The translations under genes were made by a program, and so were the position numbers. Shown piece after piece: positions 20 through 25,083 of a stretch of 64,000 nucleotides of DNA (its first letter is position 1; every line of letters starts with the position of its first letter). This DNA comes from Candidatus Parcubacteria bacterium (lineage in GTDB: Bacteria > Patescibacteriota > Patescibacteriia > CAIXNZ01): contig JAPLYG010000001.1 of the NCBI GenBank assembly GCA_026395685.1, positions 7,862 to 71,861 on the forward strand. The letters run 5' to 3'. A model generated the notes under the pieces. It was given only the letters and a program-made list of their open reading frames with translations, was not told the DNA's origin and made no database searches.

Positions 20-667
20 TTGGGTTTTATTAATGAGTATTTAAGAAGAGAAAATATTAATAAGATTTTAGATGTCGGTGTCGGCAACGGCAGAATCTTA
101 AAAAATTTAATTGCTCATTCGGATCAGGCTGCTGAAATTTATGGCATTGATATTGCGGAGCAAATGGTTAATATTTGTTTAAATAAATATAAAGACGAAC
201 CAAAAATTAGGGAAATTAAAGTCTGCAATTTATCGAAAGAAAATTTAAATTTTAATAATAAGTTTGATTTTATTACTGCAATTAGGGTGCTTAAGTATAA
301 CCTGAATTGGCCGGAAATAATCAAAAAGATATATTCAGGATTGAATAATGACGGATATTTTATCTTCACTATGCCCAACGAGCTATCTATTACTTTTTTT
401 CACAAAGATAAATTTGCTAATGGTAAATTAATGATTCAATATTCAACTCCCAATAAAATAAAAGAAATTCTCAATGATTGCGGTTTTGAGAATATTAAGA
501 TTAAAAGTTTTAGCAAGCTGCCTGATTTTCTGTATTATCTTAGCAATAATATGTATTACGTTAAATTGCTATTGTTATTGGAAAATATTTTAAGCAAAAC
601 TTTCGGCAATATTTTATTCGGCAGAATTTTATTTATTGCCTGCCAGAAGAATAAAAATGAGGAATAA
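20..667 (+). CDS. Class I SAM-dependent methyltransferase (possibly 5'-partial; frame open to window start)
   Basis: Motif I-like 'LDVGVGNGR', followed by acidic motif II 'YGIDIAEQM' and 'FDFITAIRVL'. Typical Methyltransf_11/12 layout. Confidence 0.6.
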   Translation: MGFINEYLRRENINKILDVGVGNGRILKNLIAHSDQAAEIYGIDIAEQMVNICLNKYKDEPKIREIKVCNLSKENLNFNNKFDFITAIRVLKYNLNWPEIIKKIYSGLNNDGYFIFTMPNELSITFFHKDKFANGKLMIQYSTPNKIKEILNDCGFENIKIKSFSKLPDFLYYLSNNMYYVKLLLLLENILSKTFGNILFGRILFIACQKNKNEE

Positions 668-3600
668 AATAAAAAAATTCAAGAAAAGCAGATTTTTCAA
701 ATTTATCGCGCGCCATAAATACCCGATACTTTTAATTTTGCTCGCTATTATTACCCATTGGCAGTGGTTTGATCCAAACAGTTTGCTTTTTCACGGCGAT
801 TGGCGCAACTGGCCCAATGAAAACATCCAAAGGTTTATTAGCGGCGGCTATGGAGCTTATGTTGATGACCTGAATTTTGGCATCCAAAACATCCAGATTT
901 ATTTTAGTTTTATTTTCTTTCTTTGGGGAATAATTGGATCTTATTTGATGGCCACAAAATTAGTTATGCTTTTGCCCATCGCCCTTCTCTCTCTTTTAGC
1001 CCCTTATTATTTGGTTAAGGAATTGGTTAAAGATGAAAGAATTGCTTTTGTGGCTGCGCTTTTTTATGGCTTTACCACAGTATTACTCAAGCTGGAATTA
1101 GCCCATTTGTTTATCGCTTTTGTCTTTGCCTTAGCACCCTTGATAATTTTATCTTTCATAAAATTATTAAATAACTTCACCTGTAAAAATATCCTTGCCT
1201 TTTCCCTGTTATTTTCCCTGGGATGTTTTTATGAATTAAGAATAATGTACATCATAACTTTTATTATATTTTTCTACCTCCTCATTTATATAACAAAGAA
1301 AAAATTCAAGGTGAATTTTTTCAAATATATCCTTTTAGCCCTTGTAATATTGGCGCTAAATGCCTTCTGGCTACTGCCGACTGTTTTTAGCGACCGTACA
1401 GTATTAAATTCTATTGAAGACCGCGGACTTTTTGGCAATAATTTTTTTAATATTTTTTACGCTTTCAGCGATTTTGACAAATACTGGAACGGCCAGGTAT
1501 TAATTCCCTTTGAAGCCCAGCCTATTCCTTCTTGGACATGGATAATGCCGATCTTTATCTTCTCCTTATTTTTCTTTTTTAATAAAATCTCCAAAACCGA
1601 CAAAAAAATAATTTTATTCTCATTCTTTCTAGCTTTATTGGGCATACTTTTAAGCAAACAATCTTTTGAACCTTGGCCCGATTTGTATGCTTGGCTTTAT
1701 AAAAATTTTCCCGGCTTCAGCCTTTTCAGGGAAGCTTCAAAATTTTTTCTCATTATTACGCTAGGCTATTTGTTGTTATTTGCCTACGCCTTGAAATATA
1801 TAATCATTAAAAATAAAAGATTTAACAAACATTTTAAGTCCGCTATATTTATTCTTTTTAGTATAATCTTTTTATGGCAAGCTAAGCCGCTGATAACAGG
1901 AGAAGTAGGCTGGCTGTTTTCTCCCAAAATAGAGCCAGGGGAATATAAAATTTTAAATCAGATAATAAAATCCGGCAATGATTTTTATCGCACGCTGTGG
2001 ATTCCCCGCGATTCCCAATGGGGCTTTTATAACTGGGACAAGCCCAAAGTCTCCTTGGTATCTGTTAAGGATAGCGAATACAAAACATTTTACTCAGAGC
2101 ATAAAGCGGAAAAAAATTACGCTGATTTTATATTTGAACCCTTAGAAAAAAACTATGGTAATTATTTGGCCGATCTTTCAAATATTAAATATTTCGTTAT
2201 ACCTATGCCTGATTGGCAGAGTGACGTATATGAATATTATGGCAGCGCTTATCAGGATTATATTGATAAAATTAAAAATCTGGATTTTTTAACAGAGTTA
2301 AAAATAGACGGCCTGGATAAAATTAAATTATATGAAAACAAGGGGTACAAACCCTATATTTTTGCTTTTGACAGCCTTTTTGCCGTTAGCGCAAATCAAA
2401 ATTTAGAAAAAAAGTTTAATTTGATTAATAATTATTTAAATAAAGATTTTAATTTTACGCTCCTCAGCAATGGTGATAAAGAAATAGAAAACTTAACTGG
2501 GCTGGAAAATTTATTTGAAAATATTAATTTTGGAAATATCAAGCTGGATGAACTTATATTTACCGCAGATAGCTCAATTAATCAAAAAAACAATTTCCTT
2601 TTGACCAATAAATTTAAAAATAATCTATATGCCAAAAAGGAAAACTCTATTATATTATTTTATACTAAGCCTTCGGGCAGTTTGAATTTTAACGGCCGGC
2701 TAATTAGCCAGGAACAAACAAATATCCTGGAGCAAATTAAAGTTGAAGATGCTATTGAATATTATGTATCTCAAAATAGCAATTTAACTCCTTTAATCCC
2801 AAATGTGGAAATTTCTCTCGGCCAATTTGACAGGACAGCATCTCTAACACTATTTTCAGAAACTAAGCAAAATTTAATAGTCAATCCTTCGTTTGAACAG
2901 GGGCTTTGGCAGGACAAAGCCAAGGATTGCCATAACTATGACAACAACCCCATTTTAAATATTAATCTCAATAACCAAGAAAAAACCCAGGGTAATTATT
3001 CTTTGCAGTTAGAAGCAACCAAGCACACTGCCTGCACTTCAACGCAATTTTCCGTTGAACCAGAAGCGGACTTTATTTTCAGTTTTGATTACAAAAACCT
3101 AAAAGGACAAAAAGTCGGTTATTATCTGGAATTTAACAATCCCCAAAAAACAATAATCAATGAGAGTTTCATTAATAATGAAAACGATTGGCAGGTCTAT
3201 AGAAAATGGATAACCACGCCCCAAAATGCCACTTCAGCTAAACTTTATCTTTATGCTTTTGAAAGCGATGAGATGAACAATAATATAAACCTATATGATA
3301 ATCTGCAATTTTTAAAAATTAATCAGCTTAAATCCTGGGAAATACAAGGCAATAGCAAAGAATATAATCGGGAGAATCTTATTTTAACAGAAGAAAAAAA
3401 TGTTTTTTCTTATTCGTCTAAAAATCTCAATTATCAAAATATTATAAAAAATTCGTCTTTTGAAGATGGTTTGTGGCAGAAAAAGGTCAAAGATTGCCAT
3501 AATTATGATGACAACCCAATTTTGGCTATGAGCCAAAATAATCAAGAAAAAACTGAAGGTGACTATTCTTTGCAATTAGAAGCTACCAGGCATGACGCCT

Positions 3601-4373
3601 GCTCTTCAGTAAACTTTCCGATAAAAGAAAATTCAACTTATTTTTTTAGCTTTGATTATCAAAGTCCCAATGCGGAAAGTGTCGGCTATTATTTAAGCTT
3701 TAACAGTCCGCAAAAAGACTATTTGAGCGATAAAATTAAATTAAATAATCAAGATTGGCAAAATTTTAATAAAATCATCACTACTCCTGAAGGAGCCACT
3801 CAGGCGAATTTGTACATTTATGCTTACGCCACAAATAATGGAAAAAATAATATTACGCGCTATGACCATTTCCAATTCATAGAAATTACTGATTTAACGG
3901 ACAAATACTATTTAATTAGCCTGCCAAAATTTAAGATTCAAGAGCCTAAAAAAATAGAATTTGAAAATATCGGCCCCATAAAAAAAGAAATTAATATAAA
4001 ATCGGCTTCAGCTCCCTTTTTTCTGGCGCTCAATGAAAGCTATAATCCTTATTGGCAACTAGAGTTTAATGGCCAAGAAAACCAAGGAATTTTAAATTCC
4101 TGGTGGCCTTTTGCCAAACCTCAAAAAATCTCTGAAAAAAATCATTACCGATTAGATTCTTTTTTAAATGCCTGGTATGTTGATATTTATAAGTTGTGCC
4201 GAAATAATCAGGCTTGCGCTAAAAATGCTGACGGCAGCTATGATATCAAAATGACAGTTGAATTTTGGCCGCAACGTTGGTTTTATCTGGGCGCTTTAAT
4301 ATCATTTGTCGTTTCTATTTCTATGATTTTGTTTTATATAATTTTCTATAAATTCATATGGCTGAAAAAATAA
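636..4373 (+). CDS. Giant polytopic membrane protein, GT-C-fold glycosyltransferase-like (YfhO/PMT/ArnT-like topology) with two tandem CBM4/9-like extracytoplasmic repeats and a C-terminal TM anchor
   Basis: About 12 predicted TM helices in the first ~420 aa. An internal ~190-aa tandem repeat ('NPSFEQGLWQDKAKDCHNYDNNPIL...YSLQLEATKH' versus 'NSSFEDGLWQKKVKDCHNYDDNPIL...YSLQLEATRH') is visible at DNA level at about 2881-3400 and 3450-3960. Hydrophobic C-terminus. The true start may be the internal Met at ~657. Confidence 0.45.
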   Translation: MPARRIKMRNKIKKFKKSRFFKFIARHKYPILLILLAIITHWQWFDPNSLLFHGDWRNWPNENIQRFISGGYGAYVDDLNFGIQNIQIYFSFIFFLWGIIGSYLMATKLVMLLPIALLSLLAPYYLVKELVKDERIAFVAALFYGFTTVLLKLELAHLFIAFVFALAPLIILSFIKLLNNFTCKNILAFSLLFSLGCFYELRIMYIITFIIFFYLLIYITKKKFKVNFFKYILLALVILALNAFWLLPTVFSDRTVLNSIEDRGLFGNNFFNIFYAFSDFDKYWNGQVLIPFEAQPIPSWTWIMPIFIFSLFFFFNKISKTDKKIILFSFFLALLGILLSKQSFEPWPDLYAWLYKNFPGFSLFREASKFFLIITLGYLLLFAYALKYIIIKNKRFNKHFKSAIFILFSIIFLWQAKPLITGEVGWLFSPKIEPGEYKILNQIIKSGNDFYRTLWIPRDSQWGFYNWDKPKVSLVSVKDSEYKTFYSEHKAEKNYADFIFEPLEKNYGNYLADLSNIKYFVIPMPDWQSDVYEYYGSAYQDYIDKIKNLDFLTELKIDGLDKIKLYENKGYKPYIFAFDSLFAVSANQNLEKKFNLINNYLNKDFNFTLLSNGDKEIENLTGLENLFENINFGNIKLDELIFTADSSINQKNNFLLTNKFKNNLYAKKENSIILFYTKPSGSLNFNGRLISQEQTNILEQIKVEDAIEYYVSQNSNLTPLIPNVEISLGQFDRTASLTLFSETKQNLIVNPSFEQGLWQDKAKDCHNYDNNPILNINLNNQEKTQGNYSLQLEATKHTACTSTQFSVEPEADFIFSFDYKNLKGQKVGYYLEFNNPQKTIINESFINNENDWQVYRKWITTPQNATSAKLYLYAFESDEMNNNINLYDNLQFLKINQLKSWEIQGNSKEYNRENLILTEEKNVFSYSSKNLNYQNIIKNSSFEDGLWQKKVKDCHNYDDNPILAMSQNNQEKTEGDYSLQLEATRHDACSSVNFPIKENSTYFFSFDYQSPNAESVGYYLSFNSPQKDYLSDKIKLNNQDWQNFNKIITTPEGATQANLYIYAYATNNGKNNITRYDHFQFIEITDLTDKYYLISLPKFKIQEPKKIEFENIGPIKKEINIKSASAPFFLALNESYNPYWQLEFNGQENQGILNSWWPFAKPQKISEKNHYRLDSFLNAWYVDIYKLCRNNQACAKNADGSYDIKMTVEFWPQRWFYLGALISFVVSISMILFYIIFYKFIWLKK

Positions 4374-4837
4374 TATACCGCAAGAAAATCAGTAAGATTT
4401 TTAAGCTTTTTAAAAAATTCAAGCCTAGGGTTGAAAAATATTGCCAGCTGGGATTAGATTGTTTGGTGAATACCTCAAGGGTTGTTTATTTGCAAGTAAA
4501 AAAAGAAAAGCTCTATGGATTTTTAATAATCATTGTTTTTATTATTATTTGGCTTCTGATAAACTTTGCGACTGCTTGTTTGGTAACATTATTTTTAGTC
4601 TTTCTTTGTTATAAGTGGGACAGAAGGATACTGTTAGCGCCAGCGCTGATTTTATTGATTAGCTGCCCTATTTTTTTGCATTTAAAACAGGATAATTATG
4701 CGATTCTAGCCGCAGTTTACGCTTATTATTTATTGCTGATGATTTTTACATTATTAGTTTTTGATTTCCGCGGTTATAATCTTTTTAATAAAATAAAAAA
4801 ATGGCTAAAAAAATTAAAAGCATCATTTTTTTCCTAG
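4358..4837 (+). CDS. Small integral membrane protein (hypothetical)
   Basis: 159-aa ORF with 3-4 hydrophobic helices, tightly packed between two membrane-protein genes. No recognisable motif. Confidence 0.3.
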   Translation: MAEKIIYRKKISKIFKLFKKFKPRVEKYCQLGLDCLVNTSRVVYLQVKKEKLYGFLIIIVFIIIWLLINFATACLVTLFLVFLCYKWDRRILLAPALILLISCPIFLHLKQDNYAILAAVYAYYLLLMIFTLLVFDFRGYNLFNKIKKWLKKLKASFFS

Positions 4838-6468
4838 GATTAACCATTATTATTCTTTGGCAAATGCTCAAGCCGGGCTACATCTTAACCTTGGATATGA
4901 TTTTTACGCCTCATTTTAGCAATTTTCTAACTAATAATAATATTTATAATACCTATCCCTTCTATTGTTTTTTGGCGCTGCTGGATTTAATTTTACCCTC
5001 TTGGATTTTACAAAAAATAATTTTATTGCTTTTGTTTTTGTGTATCAGTTATTTAGCTTTTAAATTTCTGCCCGTTCCTCAAAATTATCGCGCTAATTAT
5101 TGGGCGGCTTTGTTTTATACTGTTAATCCTTTTGTATATGAGAGATTTTTGGCCGGGCATTGGCAGCTTTTATTTGCTTATGCTTTTTTGCCGCCGTTAA
5201 TTTTCTATTTGCTGGAATTTGCCAAATTTCAAGATCGGCGACACTTAATCATAATTTTGTTCTGGATTTTTTTAATAGGCATGTTCTCTCTGCATTTTTG
5301 GGTAATTTCAATTCTGCTTATTTTAATTTTCTTAATTTTTCAGATTTTACATAGTTTAATCGCCAATAAAAAAGAGGCGGCTATGAGGTTGCTGCAATAT
5401 TGCTGCGCTTTAGGATTAGGCATTCTAATTTTAAGCAGCTATTGGCTGATTCCCTATTTAGTAAATAATCAAAAATCCATCCTTAACACTTTTACGCCGG
5501 AAAATATCCAATTATTTAAATCATCCGGAGATCCTCGTCTAGGCACAACTTTAAATGTCCTATCGCTTTACGGATTTTGGCAGGAAAATCAGCCCTGGGC
5601 CAATTATTGGCTCTGGCCAAAGGATAATTTTATTTTATGGTCAATCTTTAGCCTAAGTTTAAGTTTCCTAATTTTAACTGGCTTAATTAAAGGATTGCGC
5701 AACAAACGAAAGAGAGGCCTGGCTGTGTTTTTTTTTATTTTCGGCTTGCTGGCTTTTATTTTTTCAACCGGACTGGGCGAAACTATATTTAAGGGTTTAA
5801 ATAAGTGGTTATTCGCAAATATTTATTTTTGGCGGGGTTTTCGCGATACCAATAAATTCAGCGCCTTTTTAGTGATTAGCTATATTTTTTTTATTGGTTT
5901 GGGACTGGAAACAATTATAAAATTTTTAAAAGAAAGAAACTTCAAATTAACTAATTTTGTCTTAGCTCTCATTTTTCTCATCCCCCTTATTTATACATAC
6001 CCGATATTAGGAGGGTTTGCCAGACAATTACAGCCGATTTGGTATCCAAAGTCGTGGCTCCAAATTAATCAAATTTTGAATCAGGATAAAAGTGATTATA
6101 AAGTGCTTTTTTTGCCTTGGCACCAGTATTTTTCCCTTAGATTTAATAACACGTTAATTACTGCCAGCCCAGCTAAACTATATTTTGATAAAAAAGTTAT
6201 TCAGAGCCAAAATATGGAATTGGATTCAATTATTACCCCAATAGGCGCATCAGAATATCAGAAGGTTGAAAATATGATAATTAATGAAAATCAATTTGCT
6301 GAAAATAAAATAATTGAGACTTTACAATTAGAAAATATCAAATATATTATCTGGGCCAGAGATTTAGAAGGCCAGGATATTTTTCAGTATAATTTTTTAC
6401 AATCAAATCATCTGTGGAATACTTTTAATTCACTGGAAATAAATCTTTATCAAATTCAGGGAAATTAA
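4801..6468 (+). CDS. Polytopic membrane protein, paralog of the N-terminal GT-C-like domain of the upstream giant protein
   Basis: More than 12 hydrophobic helices. The 'YWLIPYLVNNQKS' segment resembles 'FWLLPTVFSDRT' of ORF 636-4373, and the periplasmic Trp/Tyr-rich tail is similar. Confidence 0.45.
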   Translation: MAKKIKSIIFFLGLTIIILWQMLKPGYILTLDMIFTPHFSNFLTNNNIYNTYPFYCFLALLDLILPSWILQKIILLLLFLCISYLAFKFLPVPQNYRANYWAALFYTVNPFVYERFLAGHWQLLFAYAFLPPLIFYLLEFAKFQDRRHLIIILFWIFLIGMFSLHFWVISILLILIFLIFQILHSLIANKKEAAMRLLQYCCALGLGILILSSYWLIPYLVNNQKSILNTFTPENIQLFKSSGDPRLGTTLNVLSLYGFWQENQPWANYWLWPKDNFILWSIFSLSLSFLILTGLIKGLRNKRKRGLAVFFFIFGLLAFIFSTGLGETIFKGLNKWLFANIYFWRGFRDTNKFSAFLVISYIFFIGLGLETIIKFLKERNFKLTNFVLALIFLIPLIYTYPILGGFARQLQPIWYPKSWLQINQILNQDKSDYKVLFLPWHQYFSLRFNNTLITASPAKLYFDKKVIQSQNMELDSIITPIGASEYQKVENMIINENQFAENKIIETLQLENIKYIIWARDLEGQDIFQYNFLQSNHLWNTFNSLEINLYQIQGN

Positions 6469-6639
6469 TCTTTTTACTCTTATTTTATTAAAAAAAGATT
6501 AAATTAAGATAAATTAAAAATTAAGCAAATATTAGCCAAAATTCATTGATCTTTTGTTTAAAAATTGGTACAATTATACTAATATTAAGGTTTTAAAAAT
6601 AAAACTTAAAATATCTACCTAAAAACTAATTTATCGCTT

Positions 6640-7254
6640 ATGAAACTGAAATTAATACGCAAAATAACACTGCCTATTTTGATTGTCAGCTTAATTATTT
6701 TTTCAACTGGTCTTTTAGGCCATGGCATTTTTTGGGGCATTAAAACCGCCTTTGGCTATGGCGGGGGCGGCGGAGGCTATTACCCGCCTGTTAATACAAA
6801 TACAAACACTAATGTTAATGCCAATACTAACATTAATCAACCAATTCAGGTACTTGCCCCAACTATTGATGCTTTTAGCAGTCCGACCGGCAATTCAATT
6901 TTAGTCTTACATGGAGGACGCGATGCCAATACCATTGTTTTTATTAATAATTCAGACAATTCTGTTTCCTATCCTACGGCCACAACTTGGCAAGCGACTG
7001 TTTCTTTGGAAATAGGCCTGAATTTTTTTACTTTAACTGCCAAGAATTCAATCGGCACGAGCAGCGGAGCGGTGGCGATTTTTGTCACTCGCACTGGCTC
7101 TGCTGATATAACTGGCGATAACATAACTGACGATCTTGATTTGGCGAAATTAGTTTCTAATTGGAACAAAAATTGGTCCGATGGCGATTATAATAAAGAT
7201 GGGATAATCGATGATCTTGATTTGGCCTATCTTGTAAGCCATTGGAGTATTTAA
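6640..7254 (+). CDS. Secreted/anchored protein with Gly-rich and (NT)n low-complexity linker and a C-terminal type-I dockerin module
   Basis: N-terminal hydrophobic segment. 'GYGGGGGGYYPP' and 'NTNTNTNVNANTN'. Two 22-aa Ca-binding dockerin repeats: 'DITGDNITDDLDLAKLVSNW' and 'DYNKDGIIDDLDLAYLVSHW'. Confidence 0.55.
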   Translation: MKLKLIRKITLPILIVSLIIFSTGLLGHGIFWGIKTAFGYGGGGGGYYPPVNTNTNTNVNANTNINQPIQVLAPTIDAFSSPTGNSILVLHGGRDANTIVFINNSDNSVSYPTATTWQATVSLEIGLNFFTLTAKNSIGTSSGAVAIFVTRTGSADITGDNITDDLDLAKLVSNWNKNWSDGDYNKDGIIDDLDLAYLVSHWSI

Positions 7255-7291
7255 AAAATTATTATTAATTTTTAAAATAACTGCAAAAATT

Positions 7292-8518
7292 ATGAAAAAA
7301 ATATTCATTGTTTTATTAATATCCTTGGTTCTAACTTTAATTTCCTTGCCTGCCTTAGCTGCCTCAGCCACGCTATCTTTAACGTCAAGTAAAACTACTT
7401 ATAAAGTTGGTGATGTTCTTAAAGTCTCTATTAATATCAATAGCGATGGTAATGCGCTTCAGGTAGTCAGGGCAAAGGTTTCTTACCCGGCTGATTTATT
7501 GCAAGCGCAGGGATTTACTTTGGGTTCGCTTTTTCCCCAAAAAAGTCCCGGTGAAATTATTGGTGGTGGCACCCTTTATGTCGGCGGTTATCGCATAGGC
7601 GAGGGTACAAGTTCAAATGGCGTCTTGGGCACAGCTACCTTTAAGGTCATAAAAGCCGGAAAAGCCGCCTTGTCTTTAGTCGCCGGTTCAAGAATGGTTA
7701 CTGCCGAACCAAAAGATATTTATAGCGGAGGCAATAGTTTGGCTTTCACTTTAAATACAGTTGAAAAGCCAAAAGAAGAAATAAATCCAGCTAAGCCGCA
7801 GGAAAAAATAATTTTAACTGCGCCGGAAATTTCCTCAGCTGCTAATCCTGAAGATGCCTGGTCAAAATCAAATTCAATAACTTTGAACTGGACCAAGCCA
7901 GCTAATGCGCTTGGTTATGTGACAAAATTATCAGCTGATACCTTGGAAGATATTGGTGAAACAATTACAACTAAAGATAATACTGCAACATACAATAATG
8001 TTGGAGACGGGATTTGGATTTTTTATCTGAAGGCTAAATATCAGACAGGCTTTAGCGAATTAGCCAATTATACTTTAAAAATTGACACAATTCCGCCAGT
8101 GGTTCCGCAACCCTCGATTGAAGCCCAGTTAAACCAAAATAATGCCAATACCTATCAAATTTTATTTAATACCACGGATGCTTTAGCAGGCATTGATCAT
8201 TATCAGATAAAATTTGACGATAGTGAGTTTAAAAATGCTAATAGCCCTTATATCTTAAATAGTAACGAAAAAGAAGCAAAGTTTGTCACTGTTAAAGCAG
8301 TTGACAAAGCAGGCAATGAAAGCACTGGCGTGTTAGCAATTAGCGATTATATCGCTAGTCAGGATAAAATAGCATTACAAAAAACAACATTGTTTGATAT
8401 TCAGGCTAATGCAGTTAAACAATCTCAATTAACTTTTTATATTGTTTTGGCTGCAATTATTGCCATTATCACGATTGTAATAATTGCCATTATTGTTAGG
8501 AATCGTAAAAAATCTTAA
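7292..8518 (+). CDS. Cell-surface protein with N-terminal cohesin-like domain, Ig/FN3-like middle region and C-terminal TM anchor
   Basis: Signal peptide 'MKKIFIVLLISLVLTLISLPALA'. The segment 'TTYKVGDVLKVSININSDGNALQVVRAKVSYPADLLQAQGF' fits the cohesin beta-sandwich signature. C-terminal 'IVLAAIIAIITIVIIAIIV' followed by 'RNRKKS'. Confidence 0.5.
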   Translation: MKKIFIVLLISLVLTLISLPALAASATLSLTSSKTTYKVGDVLKVSININSDGNALQVVRAKVSYPADLLQAQGFTLGSLFPQKSPGEIIGGGTLYVGGYRIGEGTSSNGVLGTATFKVIKAGKAALSLVAGSRMVTAEPKDIYSGGNSLAFTLNTVEKPKEEINPAKPQEKIILTAPEISSAANPEDAWSKSNSITLNWTKPANALGYVTKLSADTLEDIGETITTKDNTATYNNVGDGIWIFYLKAKYQTGFSELANYTLKIDTIPPVVPQPSIEAQLNQNNANTYQILFNTTDALAGIDHYQIKFDDSEFKNANSPYILNSNEKEAKFVTVKAVDKAGNESTGVLAISDYIASQDKIALQKTTLFDIQANAVKQSQLTFYIVLAAIIAIITIVIIAIIVRNRKKS

Positions 8519-9459: not shown

Positions 9460-9846
9460 ATGTCTAAAATTTTAGCAGTTGACAATGACTTAAACACTTT
9501 GGAGACGATTTGTTTAAGCCTGGAAGCAGGGGGACATAAAGCAAGCAAAGCTGAAAGCGGCGAACAAGCCTTGAAAGTTTTGAAGCAAAATAAAATCGAT
9601 TTAATTTTGCTTGATATTATGATGCCGAAAGTTGACGGCATCCAGGTCGCCAAAAATTTAGCGGCTGATTCTGCATTTAAAAAAATACCCATCATTTTAA
9701 TTTCCGCTCTGCCGATTGAATCAAACAGTTTTAAAAAAGCCCTGAAAGAAACTGAAAAGCTTGACAATGTCAAAGGCTCGATTGAAAAACCGTTCAAGCT
9801 GGAAGATTTGCTGGCGAAAATAGATGTAGTTTTAAAAGGCGTTTAA
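9460..9846 (+). CDS. Single-domain response regulator (CheY-like receiver)
   Basis: 'ILAVDND', 'LLDIMMPKVDGIQV' and a conserved Lys region 'IILISA'. No output domain. Confidence 0.8.
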   Translation: MSKILAVDNDLNTLETICLSLEAGGHKASKAESGEQALKVLKQNKIDLILLDIMMPKVDGIQVAKNLAADSAFKKIPIILISALPIESNSFKKALKETEKLDNVKGSIEKPFKLEDLLAKIDVVLKGV

Positions 9847-9871: not shown

Positions 9872-11869
9872 ATGGCAAGCGCAATCAATGGTAAAAAAAT
9901 AAAAGCATTGCAGCGCCAATCTGATTTGCAAGAAAAATCAGTAATTAATGATTCTTTGGCCAACTTTTATAATGCCACGGAGCATTCATTCTCCGGCATT
10001 TTTATTTTGGACAATGATTTTAATATTATTTATCTGAATGAAGCAGCGGCTAAAAATCATGGCTATGCCAGGGAGAAGATCGGGATTAAAAATTTTTTTG
10101 ATTTAATCAATTGCCAATCAAATAATAAACAAAATAAGATTTTAGCCAGGTTGCAGAAAGGAGAGTGGATCGGCAAAATCAAAATAGATGGCGCTTCGGG
10201 CGACAGGATGAAATATGAAATTTATATCAATAAAATACAGCAAATTGGAAACGGACGACAGTCCTTTTTGGCCATAGAAAACCAAATTCTTGATTCAACC
10301 AAAACAGAAGAAAAATTGAGGCAGTCAGAGGAACGTTTCAGGATAATTTTTGAAAACGCGCCCGAAACGATTTATTTGAATGATCTGAAGGGAACATTTA
10401 TTGCCGGCAATAGAGCCTCGGAAATATTGACCGGTTATAAAAGAAACGAGCTGATAGGTAAAAGTTTTCTCAAATTGAAGCTGATTAGCCCCCAGCAAAT
10501 ACTCAAAGCGGCAGAGCTTTTAGCTGCTAATGCTTTAGGCAAACCGACTGGCCCTAATGAATTTAAATTAAGACGTAAAGACGGCGCAACAGTCATAGTT
10601 GAAATAAGCACTTATCCTGTTAAATTAAACGATAAAACCACAATTTTGGGCATTGCTAGGGATATCTCGGAAAGAAAATCCATGGAAAATAAGCTGGCTG
10701 AAAGCGAGGCAAAATACCGCTCTTTGGTTGAAGAAACAAGCGATATTATTTACTCTGCAGATTTGGACGGCAACTTGACTTATATCAGTCCGCAAATTGC
10801 CAAATTAGGATATCGCCCCAAAGAGCTTATCGGAAAAAATTTCCTCCAATTCATTCATCAAAGCGATAGGAATAAAGTAATTAATGATTTTAAAAAAACC
10901 ATCACAACAGGGCAGGAATTACCAACCCAATTCAGGCTCATATCAGACAATAAAAAAAACAATTATCGCTGGGTTGAAGAAACTGATAAAGTTATCAGGA
11001 ATCGCCAGAACAACATAGTCGGTGTCACCGGCATAGTTAGGGATATTACTGAACGCAAGATTATTGAAAAACAATTGGCAAAATTAAATAATGAGCTGGA
11101 TCGTAAAGTTGAACAAAGAACCAGGCAATTAAAAATAGCCTTAACAGAGTTAAAAAGCCTGGATGCTTTAAAGGATGAATTTTTGAATATTTCCGCTCAC
11201 GAGTTAAAAACGCCCCTAACTTCTATTATCGGTTTGACCGAATTAATGATCCTAAAAAAACAGGGTTCAATTAATAACCAGCAGGAAAAAAGCCTGCAGA
11301 TTGTCAATAATGAATCAAACAGGCTTTTAAATATTATTAAAAAGATTTTAAATATTACCCGTATTGAGGCCAAAAAAGCTGTCTTTGACCTGCAATTATT
11401 AAATCCCTGTGATTTATTGCCCAAGGTCGTGGAATCGCTTAAAACCATTGCCAAGGGCTTAGAAGTTAAAATAATCTGCCAACGGCCACATGGGAAATTT
11501 TTAGTTAAGGCTGATCCGGAAAAATTGCAGGAAGTGGTATATAACCTGATTGATAATGCATTAAAATTCAGCCCGCCCAACAGCAAGGTTCTTGTTTCCG
11601 GTGAAATTAAGGATAAGAACTTTATTTTCAGTGTCAAAGACCAGGGGCATGGCATTGACCCTGCTTCAAAAAAACGGCTCTTCCAAAAATTTTCCCAGTT
11701 GGATACCGGCTTCAGCCGCCAGCAGGAAGGCACGGGACTGGGCTTGTATATCAGCAAAATCATGATAGACAGCATGGGGGGCAAAATATGGGTTGAGTCA
11801 GAACTCGGCAAAGGCGCGACTTTTATATTCAGCTTGCCTATCGCTAAAAAAAAGAAAAACGCCGGCTAA
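9872..11869 (+). CDS. Multi-PAS sensor histidine kinase
   Basis: Three PAS-like segments. HisKA H-box 'SAHELKTPLTS'. HATPase_c N-box 'YNLIDNALKFS' and G-boxes 'DQGHGI' and 'GTGLGLYISK'. Confidence 0.85.
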   Translation: MASAINGKKIKALQRQSDLQEKSVINDSLANFYNATEHSFSGIFILDNDFNIIYLNEAAAKNHGYAREKIGIKNFFDLINCQSNNKQNKILARLQKGEWIGKIKIDGASGDRMKYEIYINKIQQIGNGRQSFLAIENQILDSTKTEEKLRQSEERFRIIFENAPETIYLNDLKGTFIAGNRASEILTGYKRNELIGKSFLKLKLISPQQILKAAELLAANALGKPTGPNEFKLRRKDGATVIVEISTYPVKLNDKTTILGIARDISERKSMENKLAESEAKYRSLVEETSDIIYSADLDGNLTYISPQIAKLGYRPKELIGKNFLQFIHQSDRNKVINDFKKTITTGQELPTQFRLISDNKKNNYRWVEETDKVIRNRQNNIVGVTGIVRDITERKIIEKQLAKLNNELDRKVEQRTRQLKIALTELKSLDALKDEFLNISAHELKTPLTSIIGLTELMILKKQGSINNQQEKSLQIVNNESNRLLNIIKKILNITRIEAKKAVFDLQLLNPCDLLPKVVESLKTIAKGLEVKIICQRPHGKFLVKADPEKLQEVVYNLIDNALKFSPPNSKVLVSGEIKDKNFIFSVKDQGHGIDPASKKRLFQKFSQLDTGFSRQQEGTGLGLYISKIMIDSMGGKIWVESELGKGATFIFSLPIAKKKKNAG

Positions 11870-11890: not shown

Positions 11891-12253
11891 TTAGGCGTTT
11901 TTTCCCAAAGATTGCCTGACGAAATTTTCAAGCACATCGTCTTGCCACGGTTTGGGTGTAAAAAGTATTCCGCTGGGAGCCTCTCTTGCCTGAAGATTGC
12001 CTGAAATCAGTATCACGGGCAATGCCGGATAGGTCTCTTTTACTTTGGAAATCAATTCCAATCCTGTCATTCCCGGCATTTTATGGTCAGTGATCAGCAG
12101 GTCAAATTGTTGCTTTTGCAACAAGATTAAAGCCTTTTCCCCGCTTTCCGCCTGTATAAATTCAACCCCCAATTTCCTTAATGCGCGGCAAATGGCTTTA
12201 CGCACATATTCTTCATCGTCAACGAGCAAAATTTGCTTCTTGGCCTCACTCAT
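11891..12253 (-). CDS. Single-domain response regulator (CheY-like receiver), convergent with the histidine kinase
   Basis: 'ILLVDDEEYV', 'LLITDHKMPGMTGLEL' and 'VILISG'. Confidence 0.8.
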   Translation of the reverse strand: MSEAKKQILLVDDEEYVRKAICRALRKLGVEFIQAESGEKALILLQKQQFDLLITDHKMPGMTGLELISKVKETYPALPVILISGNLQAREAPSGILFTPKPWQDDVLENFVRQSLGKNA

Positions 12254-12518: not shown

Positions 12519-15422
12519 ATGGACAAAAAGCACCAAATCTTAAGAACGCCACAAATAGACAGTGATATAACAGATTCTGCTAAAAACAAGCTGAAGAAAG
12601 GGCTTGTTAGTTTGGTTCAGAAATTCAAGGAAGAAGACGGCTGGTCAAAGTCTGAAGAACATGTTCAGACCAGCTTTACGATTAAGTTACTGGAATTGCT
12701 GGGCTGGGATAGTTCAAGCTGGAATATCAACCAAGGACAGGATGTTAAGACTGGCAAAAAGCCCGATATAGTTTTAAAATCAAGCACATCCAAACTTTTA
12801 GTTATTGAGTCTAAGGATGCCCACAAAAAAGACATGCTTGACGGAGCATATCAGACCAAAACTTTTGTAGAGCAGTTATTAAAATATTGTTCTGGTGAGG
12901 GTGTGGCCTGGGGCGTACTGACTAATTTCGTGGAATGGCGACTGTACAGCTTTTATCAGGGGCGATTATATAAAAACAAAAAGTATGCCTTTTATGATTT
13001 GCTTTGGCCGAACGCCAACAAAGAAGATTATATTGATTTGCTTTCAGAAGATGGTTTAAACTTCTTACTCAAGCTCTCTAAAAGTTTCTTACTGCAAACT
13101 CAGGGCAGAATTGATCAGGATACTATTTATTATCCAGTTCAGCAGGATTTGGGCGTGGAAAAAATAAAGAAAGAATTTTTTGAAAAGATTAAAGTTTGGC
13201 GGTCATCCTTGCGTAAATATTTATTAAAGAATTATCCTCGCATTGAGGCTGATGATATTGATTTATTAGCACAGAAAATTTTAGACCGCTTAATCTTCAT
13301 GGACATCTGCCATGACAAGCATGTAATTGGCGAAGACATTATTGGTCAGGTTAAGGAATCAAAGTTGCCCAAGTATCAGGAATTGAAACTCAAGTTTAAA
13401 CAGATGGATGATAAGTTTAATACCGAGCTTTTCACATTTAAAGATTACAGCCAAGTCAATGAAGAAGATATTAAGATCAATGACGAAGTTATCCTACCAA
13501 TAATCACAGACTTGATAGAAATTGATTTTTCTAAATTAAGCGTTCATATTATCGGCGAAGTTTACGAGAATTATTTGGGCGAATTGGCCAAGTCCAGAAC
13601 TACTGATTCCGCCTCCGCTAAAGCTTCGGCGGACAGGGAAAAGAAAATCAGCGATAAGCAGAAACAAAAACGAAAATCCCAGGGTATTTACTATACTCCC
13701 GATTACATTGTTGACTACATTGTGAAAAATACAATCGGTGAGATATTGAAACAGGCAAAAACTGTTGAAGAAATAGAAAAAATAAGAGTCATAGATCCTG
13801 CCTGTGGATCAGGTTCTTTCCTTATCAGAGCATTTGATGAGTTTTTAAATGCATATATGCGGGTTCACAGAGAAGGCGGTCTGTTTGCTTTTGAATTAAA
13901 AAAGAAAATCTTGCAGAAGAATCTGTTTGGGGTTGATTTGGATGCCAAAGCCGTGGAAATTACAAAGTTGAATCTGCTGATTAAGGCTTTGGATGGCACC
14001 AAACCTGAAGATCTTAAGGGTAAACACCTTTTGCCTAATTTAAACTTGAACATTCGCTGTGGTAATTCATTGATTGGCGGTGAAAAATTACAGGATAAAG
14101 AGCAAAGCTTAAATCTTTTTGATAATTATAAAACTGAAGTTAATAAATTAGCTGACTTAAAGATTAGTTTTTACAAAGAATCAGATGATCAGAAGAAAAA
14201 GGACTTGCTGACAGAAATTGGCACATTGGAAATGGTGATTAATAAAAATCTTAACGGTGGGTTGAGCAAATACTTCTCCAACTTATCAAAAGTTGATCCC
14301 TTTAATTATTTCGTCGCATTTTGTTAAATATTTAATGATGGTGGGTTTGACGCAATAATCGGTAATCCGCCATATGGAGCTGAACTGAATGATAATGAAA
14401 AGGAATTTTATGCTAATAATTTTGGGGTCGGTTCAACTGATACTGCAATCCTGTTTATCAAGCGTTCATTTGATATTTTAAAGGATGAAAGTAAATTCGG
14501 ATTTATTGTCCCTAAAGCTTTTTGTTTTGCCTCTAATTACGAAAAAATCAGGGATTATGTTTGGAATAATCTGGAACAGATTGTGGACTGCAATAAAGTA
14601 TGGAAAGAAGTCAAACTCGAACAGCTTATATTTATAATCAACAAAGAAAAGAAATCTAAAAAATACTTATCCGCTAATTTTAAGAATAAGCAATTAAACA
14701 TCCTCGGCGATATTGATAAATCCGATGCAAAAGAATTTGGTTTCTTTTTAAATAGTGTTTCACCCGACGAAGTTGAAATCGCTAAAAAGATAAAATCAAA
14801 TTCACTTATGCTTAATGATATTGCCACTAATCAGAGGGGTGCAATTTTACAAAAACATATTTCAGACAAGGGCGAACTTGAGGTTATTGGCGGAGCGCAA
14901 GTACAGAGATTTGGAATTGATGGGATTAAGGGTAAAATTGACAAGAGTAAAATAGACAATGATCAAGCTTATTTAAAAGATAATTCTGTCTTAGTCCAGA
15001 ATATTGTCGCTCATATAGAAAATCCTGTTGACCATATTTTAATTATTGCAGGAATACCTGAAAAAGCAGACTATATTTTAGTGGATACCGTAAATCAAAT
15101 AACTTTACAAAAAGAGTTCTCGCCTTATTTTATTTGGTGTCTTCTAAATTCTAAGATAATTAACTGGTATGCTTATAGGTTCATTTTTGGTAAAGCTATT
15201 AGAACTATGCATTTTGATAATTCAGTGACTGCACGATTGCCTATTCCTAAGGCCACGAAGCAGGAGAAAAATTTATTAATTCAAAAGGCAAAGGAATTCT
15301 TGAAATTGGTAAAACAGAACCCAAGTGAGGATAAAATAAATGCGGTTAATTACGAAATTGACAAGGTGGTTTATAATTTGTTCGGATTGACTGATAATGA
15401 AATTAATTTATTATTTAAATAA
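12519..15422 (+). pseudogene. Type IIG restriction-modification enzyme (MmeI/Eco57I-like: PD-ExK nuclease, gamma-class N6-adenine MTase, TRD) interrupted by one in-frame TAA at 14325-14327
   Basis: N-terminal 'PDIVLK...VIESK' nuclease core. MTase motif I 'IDPACGSGSFL' lies upstream of the stop, and motif IV 'GNPPYG' (14358-14378) lies downstream of it in the same frame. The reading frame continues to 15422. The ORF track splits this into 12519-14327 and 14583-15422. Confidence 0.6.
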
Positions 15423-15437
15423 TCTAACTATAAAAAT

Positions 15438-16472
15438 ATGGATGACCGTAAAATACAAGAGATAAGAGAAGGATTACAAAGTTCTCATGTGAATTTTTTA
15501 TTTGGAGCGGGCTTGTCAACACCATATTTGCCATTGCTTGGCGATATTGAGATAAGATTATCAAGAGAAAGGAAATCCGCTGAAAGAATAAAGATAAAGA
15601 AGGAATACTTTGAAAAAGTCATGATCCCCAATTTAGAAATCATAAATAATGATATTACTAGTTCAAAACAGAATGATTTTAATATTACACAAAAAGCATA
15701 TAAAGATTTTTTTGAGCTTATTGGTCACATTTTACTTCACAGAAAAAATACTATTTTAAGTAAACAAGTAAATATCTTTACAACTAATATTGACATTCTA
15801 ATGGAAGTAGCATTAGAGGAACTTAACATGGAATACAATGATGGATTCTCTGGTAGACTAAATTCAGTTTTTAGTTTAAGTAATTTCAAGCGGTCTATTT
15901 TAAAACGAAGCTTGCACTATGAAAATGTATCGGAGGTGCCTATTTTCAATCTGGTAAAAATACACGGTTCCCTTACTTGGAAGAAAATTGAAGACAAGAT
16001 ATTTTTCTCTAAATTAACCCATTTTGATAAATCATTACTAAAAAAGTCTGGGAAAAAATTTGATGACAATTACAAAAAATTAGCAATAGTGAATCCTGAA
16101 AAGAAAAAACTTGAAGAAACCGTAATGGATCTGACTTATTATGAATTACTCAGAATGTATTCTAGTGAATTAGAGAAAGAAAATGTCATTTTATTTATTA
16201 TGGGTTTTTCAATGGAAGATGAACATATAAGAGAAATAACTATTAGGGGTGCTAATTCAAATCCCACATTAAAAATCTATCTTATTAGTCACGAAAAAGA
16301 TACTAATTTAGATCTGGCAAGAAAAATGGAAATCGGAAAATTGAGATATTCAAATATTGAAATAGTAGAACCTGAAGATGGAGAACAAAATAGCAAATTA
16401 AGTCTAACTGTAATTACAAAATTGATTTTCGAAAAAGTGGTTAAGAACATTGCTCATGACAACAAAGATTAA
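15438..16472 (+). CDS. SIR2-family NADase (defence-associated sirtuin) of a SIR2-HerA pair
   Basis: SIR2 signature motifs 'FLFGAGLST', 'FTTNIDILME' (TTNxD) and 'KIHGSL'. Confidence 0.8.
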   Translation: MDDRKIQEIREGLQSSHVNFLFGAGLSTPYLPLLGDIEIRLSRERKSAERIKIKKEYFEKVMIPNLEIINNDITSSKQNDFNITQKAYKDFFELIGHILLHRKNTILSKQVNIFTTNIDILMEVALEELNMEYNDGFSGRLNSVFSLSNFKRSILKRSLHYENVSEVPIFNLVKIHGSLTWKKIEDKIFFSKLTHFDKSLLKKSGKKFDDNYKKLAIVNPEKKKLEETVMDLTYYELLRMYSSELEKENVILFIMGFSMEDEHIREITIRGANSNPTLKIYLISHEKDTNLDLARKMEIGKLRYSNIEIVEPEDGEQNSKLSLTVITKLIFEKVVKNIAHDNKD

Positions 16473-23961: not shown

Positions 23962-25029
23962 TTAACGCAGTTTCTTCAAAACATCCATAACCCCCGACTT
24001 CTCTAATTCAAGTAGAGAATTGTAAATAAAAGTTATTGCCTTTTTTTCTCCACCCTTAATGAATTCGGGGAATGCCATTTCTTTTAAATATGGCCAATGA
24101 ATATCGTTCGGTTGTTTTACGAAAAATGTCTTATCGATTTTCTGCGGTTTTATATTTTTAAACTTTTCAGCGAATTCTTTTTTCCAGATAGCGATACATT
24201 GATAGTAATAAAGTCCATTCGTATAATTTTTTTCATCTATATATAAAGCGAAGCCTAATTCAATCCGTTTAAACCAACTCCATTCGTTTCTGCCAAAAAA
24301 TAAATAGAACAACATGTTGTCACTGCTGAATTTTGGGGTATTGCGTGTCACTTGCAATTTATGTTTCTTTAAAAATCCGATAATCCTTTTGTCTTTGTAA
24401 ATCTGTTTTAAAAAGGCAATTAGTTTTTTATTAAAGCCCAGGAAATTTGTTTTGGAAAGGGCGATGTCTTTCTTATCAAAACCCTGAAATGGTTGCATAT
24501 CTAATTCTTTCATGAATTTTAAAAAATTAGTAATAAAATATTTATTGGTTTTATTAATCTTATTATTATGAAAATAATCGTCCAAAAGATTATAGACCTC
24601 AAACCATTCAAATTGTCCTAGGAATTTGTCGATATTACTTTTAACTTGTATACTGCCCTGATCTTTCGTTATAAAACAAACAAAACCTTTATTCATTCGT
24701 AGATATTTTTCAACTTGTCCAAAATCATCCTCTGTAGCGTCGTCATAATAACGGTTTTCATGAGCATTGACTTTAATTTCAATAAATATTTTCTTATAGT
24801 TTTTATCAGTAACCTGCAAATCAATTATTGAATTGCCATATCTGACTTGGCTTTCTAAGGTAAAAGGAGCTTTAAATACCTGATCGTTACTGATATATTT
24901 TACAAATTTATTTAGAAGATCTGCATCAAGAGAAAGTATGATTTTTAAGCTTTCAGTAAAAAAATTCTCCGCAGGAGTCATTCCCGGCTGAGGCTTGTAT
25001 CTATATAAGGTAGAAAAAATATTTTCCAT
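23962..25029 (-). CDS. PD-(D/E)xK nuclease-superfamily protein (hypothetical), first gene of a two-gene minus-strand operon
   Basis: 'GNSIIDLQVTDKNYKKIFIEIKVNAHE' core. The likely start is Met 'MENIFSTLYR' at 25029 rather than the extended ORF start at 25080. Confidence 0.35.
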   Translation of the reverse strand: MENIFSTLYRYKPQPGMTPAENFFTESLKIILSLDADLLNKFVKYISNDQVFKAPFTLESQVRYGNSIIDLQVTDKNYKKIFIEIKVNAHENRYYDDATEDDFGQVEKYLRMNKGFVCFITKDQGSIQVKSNIDKFLGQFEWFEVYNLLDDYFHNNKINKTNKYFITNFLKFMKELDMQPFQGFDKKDIALSKTNFLGFNKKLIAFLKQIYKDKRIIGFLKKHKLQVTRNTPKFSSDNMLFYLFFGRNEWSWFKRIELGFALYIDEKNYTNGLYYYQCIAIWKKEFAEKFKNIKPQKIDKTFFVKQPNDIHWPYLKEMAFPEFIKGGEKKAITFIYNSLLELEKSGVMDVLKKLR

Positions 25030-25046
25030 ATAATAGGTGAAATTTT

Positions 25047-25083
25047 TGGGAAAACAAAAAGGGTCCCACGTCGGTGGCACCCT
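25047..25083 (-). terminator. Hairpin plus U-run immediately upstream of the 23962-25029 start (leader attenuator or terminator of an upstream sRNA)
   Basis: Minus strand reads 'GGGTGCCACCGACGTGGGACCC' followed by 'TTTTTGTTTT', about 20 nt before the ATG. Confidence 0.4.

Follow-up and report, generated by a model that had tools for sequence, protein, structure and literature searches.

The first two genes of a five-gene operon in a 64,000-nucleotide (nt) stretch of DNA from a 'Candidatus Parcubacteria bacterium' (hereafter the window, meaning the whole stretch that was analyzed) encode a dockerin-bearing protein and a cohesin-bearing membrane anchor. We consider it probable that these proteins, the products of open reading frame (ORF) 1 (6640-7254, 204 amino acids, aa) and ORF2 (7292-8518, 408 aa), form a cognate, non-cellulosomal, type-I-like dockerin-cohesin pair within a surface unit of Parcubacteria-group bacteria that is modular and serves for display or sensing. 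The dockerin and the cohesin are real at the family level. Furthermore, the two very probably bind each other, as an earlier interpretation made from the DNA letters alone (the sequence-only reading) had supposed, judging from their strict co-occurrence, their co-evolution and a set of domain-fusion relatives.

The window is AT-rich, with a GC content of 0.29-0.50, and its proteins are exact NCBI entries of a 'Candidatus Parcubacteria bacterium' metagenome-assembled genome (MAG) with locus tags NTZ49_000xx. ORF1 is labeled there as 'hypothetical protein NTZ49_00060' and ORF2 as 'cohesin domain-containing protein [Candidatus Parcubacteria bacterium]'. Both genes lie on the + strand with an intergenic gap of 37 nt, and are followed by ORF3, then by genes for a response regulator that has only a receiver and for a histidine kinase with PAS domains, with further gaps of 26, 24 and 25 nt; 171 nt separate ORF1 from the gene on its 5' side. 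The pair opens this tightly spaced operon, which is widely conserved in relatives: the same gene order, from the pair or the cohesin gene through the kinase, was found in loci L001-L003, L012 (without the dockerin gene) and L015. In a promoter and terminator scan, made uninformative by the AT-rich DNA, no terminator-like site was found on the + strand between the operon genes, and the sole promoter output was a weak promoter-like site at 6546-6574. Literature searches returned no description of cohesin-dockerin pairs in Parcubacteria, nor of the present operon, and this combination of five surface and signaling genes appears to be undescribed.

Dockerin and cohesin modules of ORF1 and ORF2

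The two dockerin repeats were found at the C-terminus of ORF1, exactly where the sequence-only reading had placed them. Each consists of a 12-residue calcium loop followed by a helix, and the second ends two residues before the stop codon. Repeat 2 is canonical, with D183, N185, D187, D191 and D194 at loop positions 1, 3, 5, 9 and 12, and repeat 1 (D156, T158, D160, D164 and D167) deviates only by a Thr at position 3 and an Asn at position 6. AlphaFold2 (AF2) predicted the two dockerin helices at residues 165-173 and 192-200 with a predicted local distance difference test (pLDDT) score above 90, and a conserved Trp closes each of them (...LVSNW and ...LVSHW). A regular expression for the dockerin loop, applied to all six frames of the 64 kb, matched only these two repeats, and a search of the window with hidden Markov models (HMMs) of the two families yielded a single dockerin and a single cohesin. 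The Pfam dockerin family PF00404 was matched by 6 of the 11 ORF1 family members (best E-value, 2.7e-8). Against a cut-off of 22.9, protein P0033 scored 34.3 bits and a 213-aa protein of L015 24.0 bits. Moreover, a dockerin profile (A6) built from 20 modules of the present family matched structures in the PDB over the whole module, namely, 2y3n_B (E 1.3e-7), 2vn6_B (6.7e-7), and 1daq and 2mte (1.6e-5). Among ORF1 orthologues, the dockerin is conserved at 73% versus 48% for the Ig domain.

The remainder of ORF1 has the same architecture in all 11 homologues. In its AF2 model (mean pLDDT of 78), a helix at the N-terminus is followed by a disordered Gly/Asn/Thr linker and then by the FN3/Ig-like domain, and two short helices close the chain. 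The motif FWGIKxAFGYGGGGGG is near-invariant and stands directly after the hydrophobic segment, and its 'AFGYGG' core was found again in distant dockerin proteins of L015 (3247-3888), L018, L025 and L028. This core could be a signal-peptidase site (A-F-G before Y) or a dedicated recognition element, the putative cleavage between AFG and Y following from the -3/-1 rule. ORF1 may stay membrane-anchored or may be cleaved, and the 110-aa relative in L028, which consists only of an anchor, a linker and a dockerin, speaks for an anchored form. A type IV pilin-like signal was considered and rejected, as the motif G/F(T/S)LxE (cleavage between G and F) is absent ahead of the hydrophobic segment. Poly-Gly tracts are a general trait of the related dockerin proteins. 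Part of the linker, a run of (Asn-Thr/Val/Ala)n, is encoded by two copies of a 24-nt tandem repeat (6789-6837), and its length differs between orthologues, which carry about 3 to 9 NT units. The proposal that the (NT)n tract provides N-glycosylation sequons was also discarded, since reading the sequence revealed no N-x-S/T in register. The Ig/FN3 domain gave its best Foldseek match with the FN3-like modules of CbhA (3pe9; E 7e-4, TM-score of 0.67), and it is homologous to the Ig domain of the 213-aa dockerin protein of L015 (E 4e-8 between ORF1 and the L015 protein). Neither a catalytic domain nor a carbohydrate-binding module (CBM) was found in ORF1 by Pfam scan or by Foldseek search of the model.

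The signal peptide, cohesin-like beta-sandwich and C-terminal transmembrane (TM) anchor that the sequence-only reading had assigned to ORF2 were borne out by its AF2 model (mean pLDDT of 85, and about 90 over residues 25-155). The predicted signal peptide ends at a putative AxA site. Upon a Foldseek search of the PDB, the best match of the model was 2w1n, a cohesin-FN3 structure (E 1e-11), and superposition on the cohesin 1g1k gave a TM-score of 0.78 and a root-mean-square deviation of 2.4 over 147 columns. Other cohesins scored similarly (6kgc, 0.76; 2vn5, 0.73; 2xdh, 0.73; overall range, 0.70-0.78), and many cohesin-dockerin complexes were among the matches. The Pfam cohesin family PF00963 was matched by 12 of 19 ORF2 family members. 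P0002, which is 79% identical to ORF2 (32.0 bits), P0017 (33.0), P0018 (28.2) and P0009 (27.4) all scored above the cut-off of 24.1. In addition, the ORF2 family profile (A1) matched the cohesin 5g5d (E 2.5e-5). No other folded part of ORF2 is as conserved as the cohesin (69% versus about 50%). It is carried by a stalk in which an OmpL47-type domain was matched in NCBIfam below the cut-off (E 2.8e-7), along with a chitinase FN3-like region (6bt9; E 2.7e-4). Pfam and NCBIfam scans and the AF2 model revealed no CBM, S-layer homology (SLH) repeat or LPXTG motif in ORF2, and no NCBIfam CTERM model matched it.

The architecture of ORF2 is common, with 3,006 cluster representatives at E ≤ 1e-30 in a profile search, many of them 450-600 aa long and matched end to end. 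Close orthologues are rare: the orthologue-alignment search placed them in three GTDB species, represented by a Parcubacteria MAG, a Falkowbacteria MAG and a 'Gammaproteobacteria' record. This last record (L010/L001; CAZPVP010000002.1, GCA_964590345.1), titled 'uncultured Gammaproteobacteria bacterium', carries a complete Parcubacteria-type operon with 55% identity to ORF2, and the label of this MAG is probably wrong.

Probable pairing of the two modules and comparison with known systems

A census of 80 metagenome loci fetched by their ORF3 protein offers a view of how often the two modules travel together. A cohesin is encoded in 31 of these loci, and in 27 of the 31 a dockerin ends about 100-270 nt upstream of it. 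The four others are all cut by a contig end, hence the association is 27 of 27 where enough upstream sequence is available; conversely, no dockerin without a cohesin was found among the 80. Orthologous pairs are present on at least eight contigs, and a dockerin-ending gene followed by a cohesin gene was also found in distant relatives sharing 27-46% identity (L004, L007, L011, L014, L015 and L016). In the census loci, the dockerin always lies 1-8 residues from the C-terminus.

The sequences of the two modules also diverge together. Across 26 non-redundant loci, pairwise dockerin and cohesin distances were well correlated (r = 0.875), and the partial correlation was still 0.67 after controlling for ORF3 and response regulator distances (partial Mantel p = 2e-4), above the partial r of 0.06-0.45 obtained for other domain pairs. 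Among orthologues, both the cohesin (0.69) and the dockerin (0.73) are conserved above the Ig/FN3 domains (about 0.50). Moreover, the two dockerin repeats share their helix residues in each lineage, with DDLDLA/DDLDLA, DEYDFS/DEYDFS, DKYDF/DKYDF and DIFDFN/DLFDFN as the combinations observed. Such matched helix residues in two repeats are a hallmark of dual-binding type I dockerins.

Relatives with another domain arrangement provide additional evidence for the pairing. In L070, a 387-aa protein encoded directly upstream of ORF3 has neither dockerin nor cohesin and ends in the same type of membrane anchor as ORF2. It combines this anchor with two domains that dockerin proteins carry in other loci, namely, the cargo domain known from L016 (56% identity, E 1e-58) and the Ig domain known from L015 (45%, E 3e-22). 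In such single-chain relatives, a peptide bond appears to replace both modules together.

Close parallels are found in the clostridial type I pairs (C. cellulolyticum 1g1k and 2vn5/2vn6; C. thermocellum Xyn10B dockerin, 1ohz), which share the cohesin beta-sandwich (TM-scores of 0.70-0.78) and the duplicated 12-residue calcium loop and helix at the extreme C-terminus. The near-identity of the two repeats at helix positions is likewise a feature of type I dockerins with a dual binding mode. In contrast to clostridial cellulosomes, the present system has no multi-cohesin scaffoldin, enzyme cargo or CBM: a single cohesin was found in ORF2, in the 64 kb and in each protein of the relatives. It also differs from the type I pairs in that the cohesin is borne on its own TM helix and its partner has an N-terminal hydrophobic anchor or signal, in that the pair is encoded by adjacent genes in an operon with signaling genes, and in the Trp that ends each dockerin helix.

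Three further kinds of system come nearest to the pair, each in a different respect. The Coh-FN3 module of C. perfringens GH84C/NagJ (2w1n), the best structural match of ORF2, also has one cohesin directly followed by FN3, and the NagH dockerin (2jnk/2ozn) is among the PDB matches of the present dockerin profile. The GH84C and NagH modules form a 1:1 heterodimer rather than a scaffold. However, they join secreted glycoside-hydrolase toxins, whereas the present proteins are enzyme-free, membrane-anchored and encoded in a conserved operon. C. thermocellum OlpA and OlpC (3ul4 and 4dh2, both in the Foldseek list) similarly place one cohesin on a cell-bound protein that holds one dockerin protein, although they are attached to the wall by SLH repeats, have cellulosomal enzymes as partners and are not encoded beside them. 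The modules of archaea (Archaeoglobus fulgidus, 2xdh, and anaerobic methanotrophic archaea, ANME) also occur in organisms that do not degrade cellulose, and ANME cohesin/dockerin surface proteins have been proposed to act in surface attachment or cell-cell contact (PMC9012536). They differ in lineage and in architecture, ANME often having multi-cohesin proteins or solute-binding proteins with dockerins, and they are not reported to be linked with any protein of the ORF3 type or with a receiver. In the Patescibacteria literature searched, the only mention of a dockerin is an essential envelope protein of a saccharibacterium (PMC10633639).

ORF3, the signaling genes and alternative explanations

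ORF3 has 85 homologues across Parcubacteria-group lineages, including Buchanan-, Nealson- and Staskawiczbacteria, and the motif ETVAVETTASF.K is invariant in its ectodomain. A response regulator lies directly downstream of the ORF3 homologue in 57 of 62 metagenome loci, kinase homologues were found in 40 of 80 ORF3 loci, and the dockerin-cohesin pair is present in 24 of the 46 loci with enough upstream sequence. Proteins in which a cohesin is fused to ORF3 also exist (P0227, P0205, P0246 and further ones). The receiver and the HisKA/HATPase kinase constitute a two-component system, whose functional tie to the pair we infer from synteny only. Reading the kinase sequence by eye, with no TM predictor run, revealed no N-terminal hydrophobic segment.

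In 54 of 82 loci, with or without a cohesin on it, the protein encoded just upstream of ORF3 has the C-terminal pattern '(P)LFD[IV] + 10-20 aa + TM + basic tail'. With the tripartite sorting signals (LPXTG/sortase, PEP-CTERM/exosortase and similar), too, diverse surface proteins end in a motif that has a TM helix and a basic tail behind it, and are genetically linked to one conserved membrane protein. In contrast to these, LFDI stands 10-20 residues ahead of the helix, and ORF3 resembles no known sortase, exosortase or rhombosortase. We regard the likeness of the LFDI-TM ending to known C-terminal sorting signals (LPXTG, PEP-CTERM and GlyGly-CTERM) as a resemblance only, confined to the layout.

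Additional modules occur around this ending in other loci. One is a repeat domain in which 'GYAWS.N.GW(I/V)NF' is present in three or four copies, with 'TFDC.NCD.RTD(Y/W)RP' and a run of Gly residues after them; it is carried either by dockerin proteins or by the LFDI-TM anchor itself as a fusion (L016 3265-3999, L070 2697-3872, L078 1744-3108, L083 1451-3040, L037, L075 and L082); the L016 repeat protein has no precomputed Pfam match. In one clade, a soluble TM1266-like (ACT-like) protein of about 94 aa is encoded between the cohesin/LFDI-TM gene and ORF3 (L015 6742-7023 and about 15 other loci, e.g., L027, L030, L035, L043 and L050).

These observations are consistent with the following arrangement. 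On the basis of fold, motif and comparative evidence, ORF2 would undergo export and remain fixed to the cytoplasmic membrane through its C-terminal helix, its stalk (one FN3-like and one Ig-like domain plus a helix) presenting one cohesin at the tip. ORF1 would carry its small Ig-like domain on a flexible Gly/Asn/Thr linker, and its symmetric C-terminal dockerin would plug into the ORF2 cohesin in a calcium-dependent manner. Synteny and the fusion proteins suggest the remaining steps, in which the non-covalent joint would stand in for the peptide bond of the single-chain relatives and allow different ectodomains to be mounted on one anchor. ORF3 would sit beside the complex, probably touching the LFDI juxtamembrane segment or the TM end of ORF2, with the CheY-like receiver and the soluble PAS kinase as possible communication partners of its cytoplasmic domain. 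The five genes would be co-transcribed, with the exposed ectodomain as the exchangeable part and ORF3 and the receiver as the conserved base. More speculatively, and in our view doubtful as it stands, the dockerin-cohesin joint may be the exchangeable outer coupling of an undescribed transmembrane system of the Parcubacteria group, in which diverse ectodomains are mounted on the LFDI-TM anchor directly or through the pair, the anchor docks onto ORF3, and the receiver and PAS kinase, addressed by the ORF3 cytoplasmic domain, complete a sensor of surface contact or of a ligand, e.g., for a host cell, that would be assembled from cellulosome parts. As a variant of this coupling, LFDI-TM could be a new C-terminal sorting signal and ORF3 its handler.

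Several results weigh against a paired surface unit with signaling functions. Neither ORF1 nor ORF2 matched its own Pfam family (PF00404 and PF00963, respectively) at E ≤ 1, and the NCBIfam GC-type dockerin model gave ORF1 only 13.6 bits (E 0.069), under its cut-off of 29. The sequence-only reading had made its cohesin assignment depend on an HMM match for 7292-8518, and to the letter this match is missing. We attribute the missing Pfam matches to a failure of sensitivity because orthologues, family profiles and fold agree; the cohesin result is judged an HMM false negative, as the orthologues and the fold pass. ORF3 has no significant Pfam family or PDB relative by sequence or by profile, the Alph_Pro_TM and DUF4832 matches of its profile being weak and below threshold. 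About half of the ORF3 loci have no cohesin or dockerin, and L004, L007, L011 and L014 carry the pair with no ORF3 nearby; the link between pair and signaling genes is therefore frequent, not obligatory, and the receiver and kinase might be mere neighbors. The census itself is one-directional, its loci having been fetched with ORF3. One exception to the pairing was seen: L012 (992-4895) has the cohesin, ORF3, response regulator and kinase genes and no adjoining dockerin gene. Its cohesin-TM protein (P0017) is 228 aa long, lacks the FN3/Ig stalk and is preceded by the divergently transcribed gene of a DNA-binding response regulator instead. Finally, shared rate variation can inflate a mirror-tree signal of the kind reported above.

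Alternatively, ORF1 and ORF2 could be coincidental neighbors, each binding another partner or none, as a generic EF-hand calcium module or a generic beta-sandwich might. The window sequences do fall under all Pfam thresholds and the dockerin profile also weakly matches EF-hand proteins; however, the presence of both modules in 27 of 27 loci at a fixed distance and in a fixed gene order, a partial co-evolution signal that is strongest for the dockerin and the cohesin, and fusion variants that swap out both modules at once make such a coincidence very improbable. Still less credible is a true mini-cellulosome for polysaccharide breakdown. Although the folds are of cellulosomal type and a protein with CBM_4_9 domains is encoded 2 kb upstream, this explanation is already contradicted by the single cohesin and single dockerin in 64 kb, by a dockerin protein with no catalytic or carbohydrate-binding module, by the absence of any glycoside hydrolase on a dockerin in the relatives examined, and by a CBM protein that has no dockerin. 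The label 'mini cellulosome-like' given in the sequence-only reading was thus dropped: there is one cohesin and no scaffoldin, the dockerin protein bears no enzyme or CBM, and the anchor is a TM helix rather than SLH repeats or a sortase signal.

The surface display or attachment role proposed in that reading is a reasonable one, and a more specific form of it, a host-attachment adhesin, overlaps with the paired display unit that we favor, differing only by naming a ligand (the host surface) and a purpose (episymbiosis). The dockerin-borne ectodomain would bind a host cell or particle, the cohesin stalk would hold it, and the two-component genes would report or regulate attachment. Consistent with this, the cargo varies on a constant anchor, being Ig-like in the window and made of GYAWS repeats, DUF5018 repeats or other modules elsewhere. 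One cultured saccharibacterium has an essential envelope protein with a dockerin domain, which the authors of that study speculated to target host glycans (PMC10633639), and an adhesin role has been put forward for the non-cellulosomal dockerins of Omnitrophota (PMC10066038) and of ANME consortia (PMC9012536). However, ORF1 of the window has no recognizable ligand-binding domain and some relatives have a cargo-free dockerin (e.g., the 110-aa protein of L028), so that we hold the adhesin as a tentative possibility. A role in envelope structure or glycosylation is rather unlikely. Here, the upstream family 2 glycosyltransferase (GT2) and large polytopic membrane proteins (GT-C/YfhO/MmpA-like) would help to make a surface layer, with the three single-pass proteins as its building units or substrates, and the Thr/Asn-rich linker of ORF1 would be glycosylated. 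The synteny of the window's clade (GT2, large CBM_4_9 membrane protein, small membrane protein, 555-aa protein, dockerin, cohesin) agrees with this proposal, as does the presence of the 555-aa protein upstream of dockerin genes in the Nealsonbacteria locus L015. Nevertheless, the membrane-protein genes accompany the pair in only seven of the metagenome loci that have it, the 171-nt gap with its promoter-like site separates them from ORF1, the family assignments are under curated cut-offs, and direct reading showed the (NT)n tract to be free of sequons.

Non-cellulosomal cohesins and dockerins have long been catalogued, mostly with no known partner or purpose, and here the partner can be identified by genomics alone. 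This assignment would place the present paired unit above routine annotation, as would its repeated association with a membrane protein that lacks annotation and with a receiver and kinase. The N-terminal anchor or signal of ORF1, the FWGIKxAFGYGGGGGG motif and the operon with ORF3, receiver and kinase are details that the sequence-only reading did not contain. A concrete hypothesis can be drawn from the operon on how the ultra-small and mostly uncultured bacteria of the Parcubacteria group construct their surface or sense there, and the co-varying pairs (DDLDLA, DEYDFS, DKYDF and DIFDFN types) could serve as orthogonal protein connectors. Should the two-component link be one of neighborhood only, the pair would simply add one more ordinary member to the class of non-cellulosomal cohesins and dockerins.

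Upstream genes and other features of the window

The coordinates of the operon and of the genes upstream of it are given in Table 1.

Table 1. Features of the dockerin-cohesin operon and its upstream genes, in window coordinates
Feature	Coordinates	Strand	Evidence
ORF1, dockerin protein (204 aa): N-terminal hydrophobic anchor/signal, poly-Gly motif, Asn/Thr linker, Ig/FN3-like domain, C-terminal dockerin	6640-7254	+	ORF, homologues, AF2
ORF1 N-terminal hydrophobic segment (about aa 8-30), signal-anchor (uncleaved) or signal peptide (cleavable)	6661-6729	+	AF2 helix, residues 2-27
ORF1 motif FWGIKTAFGYGGGGGG (aa 31-46), most conserved stretch of ORF1	6730-6777	+	94% mean pairwise identity among orthologues
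ORF1 disordered Asn/Thr-rich linker (aa 47-80)	6778-6879	+	pLDDT <50
ORF1 Ig/FN3-like beta domain (aa 81-152), sole 'cargo' of the dockerin	6880-7095	+	pLDDT >90
ORF1 dockerin module (aa 153-204)	7096-7251	+	Sequence, Pfam on orthologues, profile, AF2
Dockerin repeat 1, DITGDNITDDLDLAKLVSNW (D156-W175)	7105-7164	+	Calcium loop and helix
Dockerin repeat 2, DYNKDGIIDDLDLAYLVSHW (D183-W202)	7186-7245	+	Calcium loop and helix
ORF2, cohesin-bearing membrane anchor (408 aa)	7292-8518	+	ORF, AF2
ORF2 predicted signal peptide (aa 1-24), ...LPALA followed by AS	7292-7363	+	AF2 helix 2-17, low confidence 18-23
ORF2 cohesin domain (aa 25-155), beta-sandwich	7364-7756	+	Foldseek, Pfam on orthologues, profile
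ORF2 stalk, two beta domains: FN3-like (aa 176-265) and Ig-like, OmpL47/Big_13-like (aa 266-350)	7817-8341	+	AF2 secondary structure
ORF2 juxtamembrane LFDI (aa 367-370)	8390-8401	+	L367, F368, D369 and I370 invariant in orthologues
ORF2 C-terminal TM helix (aa 382-402) and basic tail RNRKKS	8435-8515	+	Sequence; AF2 continuous helix 351-407
ORF3 (296 aa): signal peptide, Ig-like ectodomain, TM helix, cytoplasmic helical domain of about 125 aa	8545-9435	+	Homologues, alignment A5
Receiver-only (CheY-like) response regulator (128 aa), no output domain	9460-9846	+	PF00072, E 5e-19
PAS-PAS-PAS-HisKA-HATPase histidine kinase (665 aa)	9872-11869	+	Pfam: HisKA 1.4e-14, HATPase_c 4.4e-29
Upstream envelope genes, linked mainly in the window's clade	636-6468	+	Pfam/NCBIfam, synteny
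Polytopic membrane protein (1245 aa), 2x CBM_4_9	636-4373	+	CBM_4_9 8.9e-10; YfhO weak
Membrane protein (159 aa)	4358-4837	+	Part of upstream cluster
Polytopic membrane protein (555 aa), MmpA-like	4801-6468	+	NF053599, E 2.5e-44, under cut-off

The three upstream proteins are possibly an extracytoplasmic glycosylation system. In the orthologous contigs (L001-L003 and L006), a GT2 gene precedes the membrane-protein cluster, and in the window a methyltransferase gene (20-667) heads it. The 555-aa protein is 41% identical to its counterpart upstream of the dockerin genes in L015. Directly past the kinase gene, a second receiver-only response regulator of 120 aa is encoded convergently (11891-12253, - strand), and the same gene was found in L001 and at the edge of L003.

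Farther downstream, an N6-DNA-methylase/MmeI-like protein with an HSDR_N domain (602 aa) and a protein with a weak match to the TaqI_C specificity domain are encoded in succession (12519-15422, + strand), and likely constitute a restriction-modification module. A DUF87/HerA-like ATPase (16450-18366) and a ParB_N-N4/N6 methylase (25783-27054) were also identified. The Rfam LOOT RNA (RF03000) was matched over the full-length model at 25076-25203 on the - strand, with 80.9 bits versus a gathering threshold of 46.4, and this match begins 5 nt inside the start of an ORF on the same strand (23962-25080). An ORF of 1874 aa (50623-56247, - strand) has a weak methyltransferase domain at aa 430-512 as its sole Pfam match. 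Finally, the segment 43785-49808, which carries purL (FGAR amidotransferase, 1299 aa) and a PurM-like gene, is GC-rich (0.45-0.50 versus 0.29-0.40 elsewhere), a composition that suggests possible horizontal acquisition, and the DNA is GC-rich again at about 56-58 kb (PEPCK).

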